Part shown: positions 1,478 through 2,662 of the stretch, piece after piece | Numbering within the stretch: position 1 is the first letter of the stretch | Layout: every line of letters begins with the position of its first letter | Source of the DNA: Candidatus Methylomirabilia bacterium | GTDB lineage: Bacteria > Methylomirabilota > Methylomirabilia > Rokubacteriales > DASRDR01 | Direction of reading: 5' to 3' | Length of the DNA: 27,260 nt | Assembly: GCA_041497395.1 (NCBI GenBank) | Contig: JBGQGN010000001.1 | Span: 1-27,260 of the forward strand | Made by a program: the position numbers and the translations under genes | Notes under the pieces: generated by a model | Databases searched by the model: none | The model's input: only the letters and a program-made list of their open reading frames with translations | What the model was told of the DNA's origin: nothing

Positions 1478-1558
1478 CGGACGGTGCCGCAGGGGCGCGC
1501 GGCGCCCCGAGTGCCAACATGAGGCCTGTGCGGAGCACGCCGATCAGCGGAGGGAGCG

Positions 1559-2662
1559 ATGGTCACGGTCATCCACGAGGAGCGGGAAACAGAGATCGCC
1601 GCGGCGCGCGTCGTCGGCGAGGGTCTCTGGCTGTCGAGCGCCGACGTTCACCGGGCGACGGGCTGGACGCTCACGCCCGAGGGACTCTGCCGTGAGGGAG
1701 CCTGCGTCCCGGTGCCACGCGGCCGCGAGGCCGACGTCATCCGAGGCGACGCGGTCGACCTCGCCGCCTTCTGGCGGCACGTCGGCCATCCGGTGGTGCG
1801 CGATGGCACAGGGCAGGTCTGGGTGCTGGGCACCGGGGCCGCCGAGCGGGCCCGCGCTCTCCGGTCGCTCCTGGCGCCGGACTTCGCGCTTCCCGATCTC
1901 GACGGGCGCATGCACGCCCTGTCGGATCATCGCGGGACGAAGGTGCTGCTGGTGACGTGGGCCTCCTGGTGAGGCTGCCGCAGTGACCTGCCGGTCTGGC
2001 AGGCCCTCTACGAAGACCTGAAGGCCCGCCGCTTCACGGTCGTGGCCGTGGCCATGGATCGAGCCTCCGACGCGGCCCGGCCCTGGATCGAGGCCGCGAA
2101 GCCGAGCTATCCGTGCGTCATCGACCACGATCACCGGGTGGCCGAGCTCTACAACATGGTCAACGTGCCGCAGGCGGTCTGGATCGACGAGACCGGGCAC
2201 ATCGTGCGACCGACCGAGAGCGCCGGCGCCTACGAGGGATTCCGGTCCATGGATCGCACGACCCGGAAGGTCCCCGATGAGGTGGCCGCGATGACCAGCC
2301 GAGCCAAGCGCACCTACGTCGACGCCGTCCGCGACTGGGTGATCCAGGGTCGGTCGAGCGTCCACGTGTTCGGTCCGGAGCAAGCGACCGCCCATCTGAC
2401 CCTGCCGGACGAGAGCGTCGCCCGAGCGCACGCGCATTTTCGTCTGGGACAGCACCTGCTGAGACGAGGCCAGGAGTCCGCGGCGCAAGCCGAGTTCGAG
2501 GAAGCCCGCCGCCTGCACCCGGACTCGTGGAACATCTGGCGTCAGACGGCGGCGGTCGATGCGCGCGGGCTGGCGGCGGGCCCGGAGTTCTGGTCGCGCG
2601 TCGAGGCGCTCGGCAGCCGCCGGTACTACGCGCCCGTCGACATGGCGGGCATGCCGGACTGA
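1559..2662 (+). CDS. Probable selenoprotein, TlpA/ResA-like redoxin (AhpC/TSA fold) with WASW-U-GC active site, 367 aa
   Basis: ORFs 1559-1972 and 2042-2662 are in the same frame. Reading through TGA 1970-1972 gives APDFALPDLDGRMHALSDHRGTKVLLVTWASW-U-GCRSDLPVWQALYEDLKARRFTVVAVAMD, a continuous redoxin fold with TGA exactly at the first-Cys position. It also has NVP at the cis-Pro position and a TPR-like C-terminal helix. Confidence 0.85.
1971..2008 (+). promoter_or_regulatory. Candidate bacterial SECIS hairpin
   Basis: Stem CCTGCC (1987-1992) / GGCAGG (1998-2003) with loop GGTCT starting 21 nt after the TGA and beginning with G. Possible lower stem GAGG/CCTC. Fits the general bacterial SECIS geometry. 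Confidence 0.65.

Follow-up and report, generated by a model that had tools for sequence, protein, structure and literature searches.

Gene structure and reading frame

The window, that is, the whole stretch of DNA analysed (27,260 nt of contig JBGQGN010000001.1), contains a split selenoprotein gene on the forward strand at 1559–2662. When its internal TGA was translated as U, a single gene of 367 codons was obtained, followed by a TGA stop. The limits of the complete coding sequence were set by this read-through translation together with the match to the family model NF041054 and the GC3 values. Homologues begin at the equivalent Met, and a Shine-Dalgarno-like sequence, GGAGGGAG, could be read at 1549–1556 (+), 2–5 nt 5' of the ATG at 1559.

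Only one in-frame TGA occurs within the gene, at 1970–1972 (codon 138), in the context TWASW-U-GC-RSDLPVWQ. As the initial annotation had claimed for WASW-U-GC, the codon lies exactly at the catalytic position, where it aligns with the first Cys of the CxxC motif of related redoxins. The codon for Cys140, which would be the resolving Cys of U-G-C, follows at 1976–1978 (+); in ResA/TlpA-like structures its counterpart, with a one-residue gap, is the second Cys of CxxC. The open stretches before and after the TGA, each taken from stop to stop, share one frame and have GC3 values of 0.85 and 0.89, which are coding-type values for this 71% GC genome. The second TGA, at 2660–2662 (+), is the true stop: homologues terminate at the same place, and no SECIS-type hairpin follows it. 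TGA is the stop of 8 of the 17 coding-like frames in the window, this gene included, and the codon is therefore not reassigned genome-wide. Standard gene calling does split the gene as had been proposed, the window's own database entry being a 202-aa C-terminal piece only. The selenoprotein interpretation given earlier for this locus is thus supported.

Family assignment

With C standing in for U, the read-through protein matched the NCBIfam equivalog model NF041054 ('WAxxUGC_long') with 307.3 bits (E 1.5e-91, profile positions 8–353 of 354), and a six-frame search of the genome against the same model gave 300.9 bits; the curated cut-off is 300 bits, so the score is only just over it. The diagnostic motif is present as W134-A-S-W-U138-G-C140, with U provided by the in-frame TGA. 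The entry, described as 'ResA-like WAxxUGC motif-containing protein', shares with the window protein the motif, its U placed at the TGA, and the division into three parts, and nothing notable differs between the two. The family that the initial annotation had mentioned therefore exists and includes this gene.

A selenoprotein family named 'Prx-like (UGC-containing)', with the domain assignment pfam00578 and the motif UGC, was catalogued by Zhang & Gladyshev in 2008 (PMC2398784). In the GOS data it comprised 46 Sec sequences and 855 Cys homologues and was commoner in non-marine samples (PMC2398784). The UGC-containing family is also listed as a selenoprotein family in PMC13188914, where one Methylomirabilota metagenome-assembled genome is predicted to hold 63 selenoprotein genes. 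Common to the window gene and the published family are a UGC redox motif, a thioredoxin fold (pfam00578/cd02966) and many Cys homologues, and the source of the gene, a soil-type Rokubacteria genome, is in keeping with the non-marine preference. Identity between the two rests on motif, fold and name. The family is therefore already known, and the window gene is an ordinary mis-split member of it. A function for the family or a mention of the N-domain Cys pair is given neither in PMC2398784 nor in PMC13188914, and a literature search found no papers under the name 'WAxxUGC'.

In the clusters of AlphaFold DB and of the ESM Atlas, both public databases, the family was found mostly as separate N- and C-terminal 'hypothetical proteins' of about 110–156 aa and about 200–222 aa, respectively. 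Some of these fragments carry wrong names, such as 'PAS domain-containing protein' or 'tetratricopeptide repeat protein'. A divergent or paralogous form was also seen in related genomes, for example at locus L040 (G040:C164), which matches NF041054 over positions ~7–205 only. It retains the N-domain and redoxin with the same WASW-U-GC and C-x4-C motifs, followed by a different C-terminal helical region.

The value of the assignment is mainly an annotation fix, as the gene is stored as two fragments here and in most public records of its relatives. Such fragment annotation conceals a widespread soil selenoprotein, belonging to a large family that extends over many phyla and nearly always has Sec, not Cys, among the nearest relatives of this gene.

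Conservation of the TGA codon

The initial annotation had suggested looking for alternation of Cys and TGA codons at position 138 among homologues. In 40 related genomes, exactly one in-frame TGA was present in each of the 31 strong NF041054 matches. Twenty loci were fetched from related genomes; all 19 that bear the motif hold TGA within WASW*GC, and the twentieth (L039) fell outside the motif pattern. A species-level collection, one genome per species, yielded 550 relatives, the best 80 of which were examined. Among these 80 the codon was TGA in 78, TGC in one and TGT in one, and the groups represented were Methylomirabilota/Rokubacteria, Burkholderiales, Alphaproteobacteria, Binatia, Acidobacteriota, Verrucomicrobiia, Myxococcota and others. 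Altogether, codon 138 was TGA in 98 of the 100 related loci fetched from DNA.

Relatives with TGC or TGT at the aligned codon numbered eight overall. The full-length database proteins of 49–60% identity are such Cys forms. Six of them were traced to their DNA, and in each case the protein was an exact table 11 translation with TGC or TGT at this codon. Cys-form orthologues occur, for instance, in Myxococcus and Hyalangium, which can be cultured.

A hairpin downstream of the TGA

A hairpin had been noted downstream of the TGA in the initial annotation, and this was borne out. The SECIS core hairpin, CCUGCC-GGUCU-GGCAGG, lies at 1987–2003 (+) and consists of a 6-bp stem and a 5-nt loop (GGUCU, 1993–1997). 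Its folding energy is −10 to −11 kcal/mol, and the loop begins 20 nt past the UGA, with G at its first and second positions followed by U. The bSECIS rules quoted in PMC13188914 call for a loop of 3–9 nt, a G within its first two positions and a stem of 4–16 bp, at 16–37 nt from the UGA and with an MFE ≤ −7.5 kcal/mol. The 1987–2003 hairpin, at −10.0 kcal/mol, conforms to the rules quoted there on all four counts.

Pairing was then tabulated over 77 unique Sec-form sequences, which are related to one another. The five inner pairs were 100% paired. One of the varying pairs was C-G in 58 sequences, U-G in 14 and U-A in five, the U-A cases arising from two synonymous changes that occur together, CTG to TTG and CAG to CAA. 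A further pair was C-G in 53 and U-G in 24. At the outermost pair, C-G (46), U-G (8), U-A (8) and mismatches (15) were found. Loop position 2 was G in 77/77 and position 3 was U in 76/77. When the 3' arm was shifted by one base, the pairing was lost. The Cys forms, which use other synonymous codons in this region (CTC, CTA, TTA and others), fold worse than the Sec forms, with a mean of −4.4 compared to −8.9 kcal/mol, and in 5/8 of them the canonical hairpin was at ~0 kcal/mol or worse. The stem thus appears to be maintained in the TGA forms by wobble and compensatory changes. This covariation is supportive but not formal proof, because the nucleotides of the stem also encode a conserved peptide (DLPVWQ) and the sequences compared are relatives; part of the stem conservation is at the protein level, and the covarying sites are few.

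When longer stretches were folded with RNAfold, an alternative pairing was favoured over the simple hairpin in the window's own sequence. This alternative (1973–2005) contains a GACC/GGUC mini-stem that is enabled by the loop variant GGUCU. Relatives with the loop CGUGU cannot form the mini-stem, and the simple hairpin is therefore the conserved structure. An Rfam scan of the window returned no family at gathering score.

Selenocysteine machinery of the host genome

The assembly is that of an uncultured soil Rokubacterium, a metagenome-assembled genome that is 79.6% complete in 335 contigs. A cluster of selC and selA-selB was found at contig C8:8728–13343 (−) by profile scores and ARAGORN. The selA (580 bits) and selB (344.6 bits) genes are adjacent, and the tRNA-Sec gene (76.9 bits; ARAGORN: SeC, anticodon tca) lies ~1.2 kb upstream of them. 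For selD, no match above cut-off was found in the 79.6%-complete assembly, and nothing was found beside tRNA-Sec. Candidates on contigs C74, C197 and C96 were rejected, as these were thiL or other AIR-synthase-like proteins. The inference in the initial annotation that the host encodes selA, selB, selC and selD therefore stands for the first three genes and not, in this assembly, for selD, although selD is present in 13 of 14 same-genus genomes, with most copies carrying one in-frame TGA.

A second candidate selenoprotein was observed on contig C146:5390–5755 (−). This TlpA/ResA-like redoxin has a hydrophobic segment of the signal or anchor type, and its in-frame TGA lies in an ordinary UxxC motif (FFWATW-U-PDC-REELP), providing an internal contrast to the U-G-C form.

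Domains and predicted structure

The AlphaFold (AF2) model of the read-through protein, built with 69 homologues, was confident over all 367 residues (pLDDT 94.8, pTM 0.92). Since confidence was maintained throughout, the three parts of the protein are predicted to be packed in a defined way.

The first part is a family-specific alpha/beta domain of residues 1–103 (1559–1867, +; pLDDT 89–95), which retained a pLDDT of 89 when folded alone. It carries the Cys pair C44-x4-C49 (1688–1705, +; both TGC) on a beta-hairpin, with strands at residues 42–45 and 48–50 in the AF2 model. The initial annotation had pointed out this C-x4-C, and it is highly conserved, with C44 present in 104/105 and C49 in 105/105 family members. 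A Foldseek search of the domain against the PDB gave no match with E < 2. With VIA-align, the best match was a hypothetical protein (Z 5.5), followed by usher N-domains (Z 4–4.5), values that are under the tool's noise guide. In the ESM Atlas only the family's own fragments and then Cu_amine_oxidN1-containing proteins (TM 0.56–0.62) were matched. On these model-based searches of the PDB and ESM Atlas, the domain appears to have no convincing structural relative beyond the family's own fragments.

The second part, residues 106–216 (1874–2206, +), is a TlpA/ResA-like thioredoxin-fold (redoxin) domain, with Pfam matches to AhpC-TSA (66 bits) and Redoxin (46 bits). These matches span the TGA and the AF2 model is confident across it, in agreement with the earlier description of an uninterrupted redoxin fold. 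The best Foldseek match was Bacillus subtilis ResA (2f9s/1st9; E 6e-12, TM by target 0.77–0.79, rmsd 1.3–1.4 Å). ResA and other TlpA/DsbE-like structures matched with E ~1e-11 and rmsd 1.3–1.6 Å over the central domain only, and phmmer against ResA gave 1.4e-13. In HMMER alignments to ResA/TlpA-like chains, U138 and C140 corresponded respectively to the first and second Cys of CxxC, and the alignments contained a gap of one residue.

The third part, residues 226–367 (2234–2659, +), is a helical TPR-like domain, with AF2 helices at 240–266, 285–302, 306–319 and others. The initial annotation had described this region as TPR-like, and the helical model agrees with this, as does a marginal match to TPR_14 (residues 292–331, 23.7 bits against a cut-off of 23.5). 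The N-terminus of the protein, MVTVIHEERETEIAAARV..., is charged, lies inside the folded first domain (pLDDT 95) and has neither a signal peptide nor a hydrophobic stretch. The protein is therefore predicted to be cytoplasmic, unlike ResA and TlpA.

Genomic neighbourhood

The gene is flanked by a divergent MFS transporter gene (158–1474, −) and by a convergent pafA, with which an arc-dop-prcB-prcA-pafA cluster ends. Elsewhere the window carries genes of a housekeeping character (solute-binding protein, thioesterase, yebC, queA, tgt, secDF, relA/spoT and sulfatase). A functional link to pafA and the proteasome was considered and rejected: in tblastn searches with pafA, prcA, prcB and dop, these genes were beside the selenoprotein gene only in two loci, L041 and L042, and were absent beside it in L043–L046, which hold 77–93% identical orthologues, and in the other 74 loci. 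The upstream MFS transporter was likewise rejected as a functional clue, being present in only four close relatives. De novo clustering of neighbouring ORFs over 81 loci gave no cluster present in more than 16 loci and no conserved partner, and the largest clusters were artefacts, made up of antisense or alternative-frame readings of the gene itself. Given that pafA adjoins the gene only in its two nearest relatives and that no partner is conserved, the adjacency is incidental. The connection to redox protein quality control that had been floated, and called unsupported, in the initial annotation found no support.

The gene and pafA have convergent stops, and the 97 nt that separate these (2663–2759) form a GC-rich inverted repeat in which GGCUCCCG at 2676–2683 faces CGGGAGCC at 2720–2727, with inner CCCGGGG/CCCCGGG and no T-run. 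From its sequence, the repeat could be a shared terminator-like structure.

Proposed mechanism and alternative functions

The probability that 1559–2662 is one gene encoding a 367-residue cytoplasmic selenoprotein of the known UGC-containing family, with the recoding and redox mechanism proposed here, was put at about 0.93. For decoding, SelB carrying Sec-tRNA(Sec) would bind the hairpin at 1987–2003, whose loop exposes G-U. UGA-138 would then be decoded as selenocysteine, and the second UGA at 2660 would terminate translation. In the resulting protein, the N-domain with its C-x4-C, the ResA/TlpA-like thioredoxin fold and the helical TPR-like tail would form three tightly packed parts, and at the start of the active-site helix Sec138 would stand in for the attacking Cys of CxxC.

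The protein is probably a cytoplasmic selenol/thiol-disulfide oxidoreductase. Sec138 would attack an oxidised sulfur of the substrate, in a disulfide or possibly in a sulfenate or a peroxide. Cys140, two residues on, would resolve the adduct, giving an intramolecular selenenylsulfide across the single Gly. Either a cellular thiol system or the Cys pair of the N-domain may then reduce this bond again.

The same selenoprotein could instead be a peroxidase in which Sec138 reduces peroxides in the manner of a peroxiredoxin or glutathione peroxidase and does not engage in disulfide exchange. The best Pfam match is AhpC-TSA (66 bits), there is a weak match to GSHPx, the literature name of the family is 'Prx-like (UGC-containing)' (PMC2398784), and selenols are in general fast with peroxides. 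However, the peroxiredoxin signature P-x-x-x-T/S-x-x-C is absent, with Leu131 at −7 and Ala135 at −3 from U138, and the NCBIfam PrxQ and BCP equivalog models gave only 17–21 bits against cut-offs of 140–260. Both the best structural matches and the motif WA(S/T)W-C...C-R-x-(D/E)-x-P belong instead to the ResA/TlpA/CcmG type. As read from the sequence, the TlpA-type motif together with the missing PxxxTxxC argues for disulfide over peroxidase chemistry, and a peroxidase is considered unlikely.

Less probable still is that C44, C49, U138 and C140 form a metal or metalloid site and that the protein serves in binding or trafficking, not as a turnover oxidoreductase. These positions are indeed conserved at or near 100% (C140 in 105/105 members, U/C138 at or near 100%), compared to only 68/105 for the fifth Cys, C186, and the three domains pack confidently (pTM 0.92). 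Against this, no metal-related gene occurs among conserved neighbours, and a vicinal redox pair on a TlpA-like fold is normally the mark of an oxidoreductase. That the TGA is a true stop (by nonsense mutation, sequencing error or the presence of two genes), with no full-length protein made, is refuted for practical purposes: gene callers do give only fragments and the 79.6%-complete assembly yielded no selD, but in 98 loci, drawn from several phyla, this codon is likewise TGA, the in-frame coding signal continues past it, termination there would break the redoxin fold mid active site, a SECIS hairpin with covariation follows, and selA, selB and tRNA-Sec are in the genome.

For the cytoplasmic selenol/thiol-disulfide oxidoreductase, a further and rather speculative extension, for which we hold out only limited expectation, is that C44-x4-C49 is a second redox centre exchanging electrons with Sec138-Gly-Cys140. 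This would give a two-centre cytoplasmic selenoenzyme in which the TPR-like tail selects a protein substrate. If true, it would amount to a two-centre relay, and neither the N-domain nor such a relay has been previously described for the family. Two features, the conserved Cys pair of the N-domain and a U-G-C centre shorter by one residue, in any case offer concrete handles for a first biochemical study.

Comparison with known systems

At the RNA level, the closest parallel is the bacterial SECIS of the Escherichia coli fdhF type, which is also a hairpin inside the coding region directly 3' of the UGA. The two share a small apical loop with G followed by U, and the 20-nt spacing and an energy below −7.5 kcal/mol fit the bSECIS model as given in PMC13188914. 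The window hairpin differs from that of fdhF in its short 6-bp stem, in having no bulged U, in being unrelated in sequence outside the loop and in having no Rfam model.

At the protein level, the thioredoxin fold with a TlpA-type insertion is common to Bacillus subtilis ResA, Bradyrhizobium TlpA, CcmG and the window protein, as is the motif W-x-(S/T)-W-[C/U]...C-(R/K)-x-(D/E)-x-P. An acidic residue is also shared with ResA, D143 aligning with ResA Glu80, and an N-V-P motif is found where the cis-Pro loop of a thioredoxin fold is expected. The active site is where they part: the CxxC of the aligned structures (CPPC, CGPC, CPHC) is replaced by U-G-C, which is one residue shorter, and the earlier statement that the motif is UxC and not the usual CxxC or UxxC was thus correct. 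ResA, TlpA and CcmG are extracytoplasmic thiol-disulfide oxidoreductases of cytochrome c maturation, whereas the window protein is without a signal peptide or membrane anchor, has additional N- and C-terminal domains and has no ccm or res genes nearby. The proposed relay between C44/C49 and Sec138 can be likened to DsbD, in which two periplasmic domains pass electrons.

A further comparison is provided by the eukaryotic Sep15 and SelM, which are thioredoxin-like selenoproteins with CxU and CxxU motifs, respectively, and which use a eukaryotic 3'-UTR SECIS. We know of no sequence relationship between them and the UGC-containing family. In the C-G-U of Sep15, Sec and Cys are one Gly apart, as in U-G-C, with the order reversed; such spacing suggests that the selenenylsulfide would be strained in the U-G-C protein as well. 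CXC motifs are known as PDI mimics, and the ring formed by a short CXC-type or Sep15 (C-G-U) motif is strained, which suits it to exchange or isomerisation.
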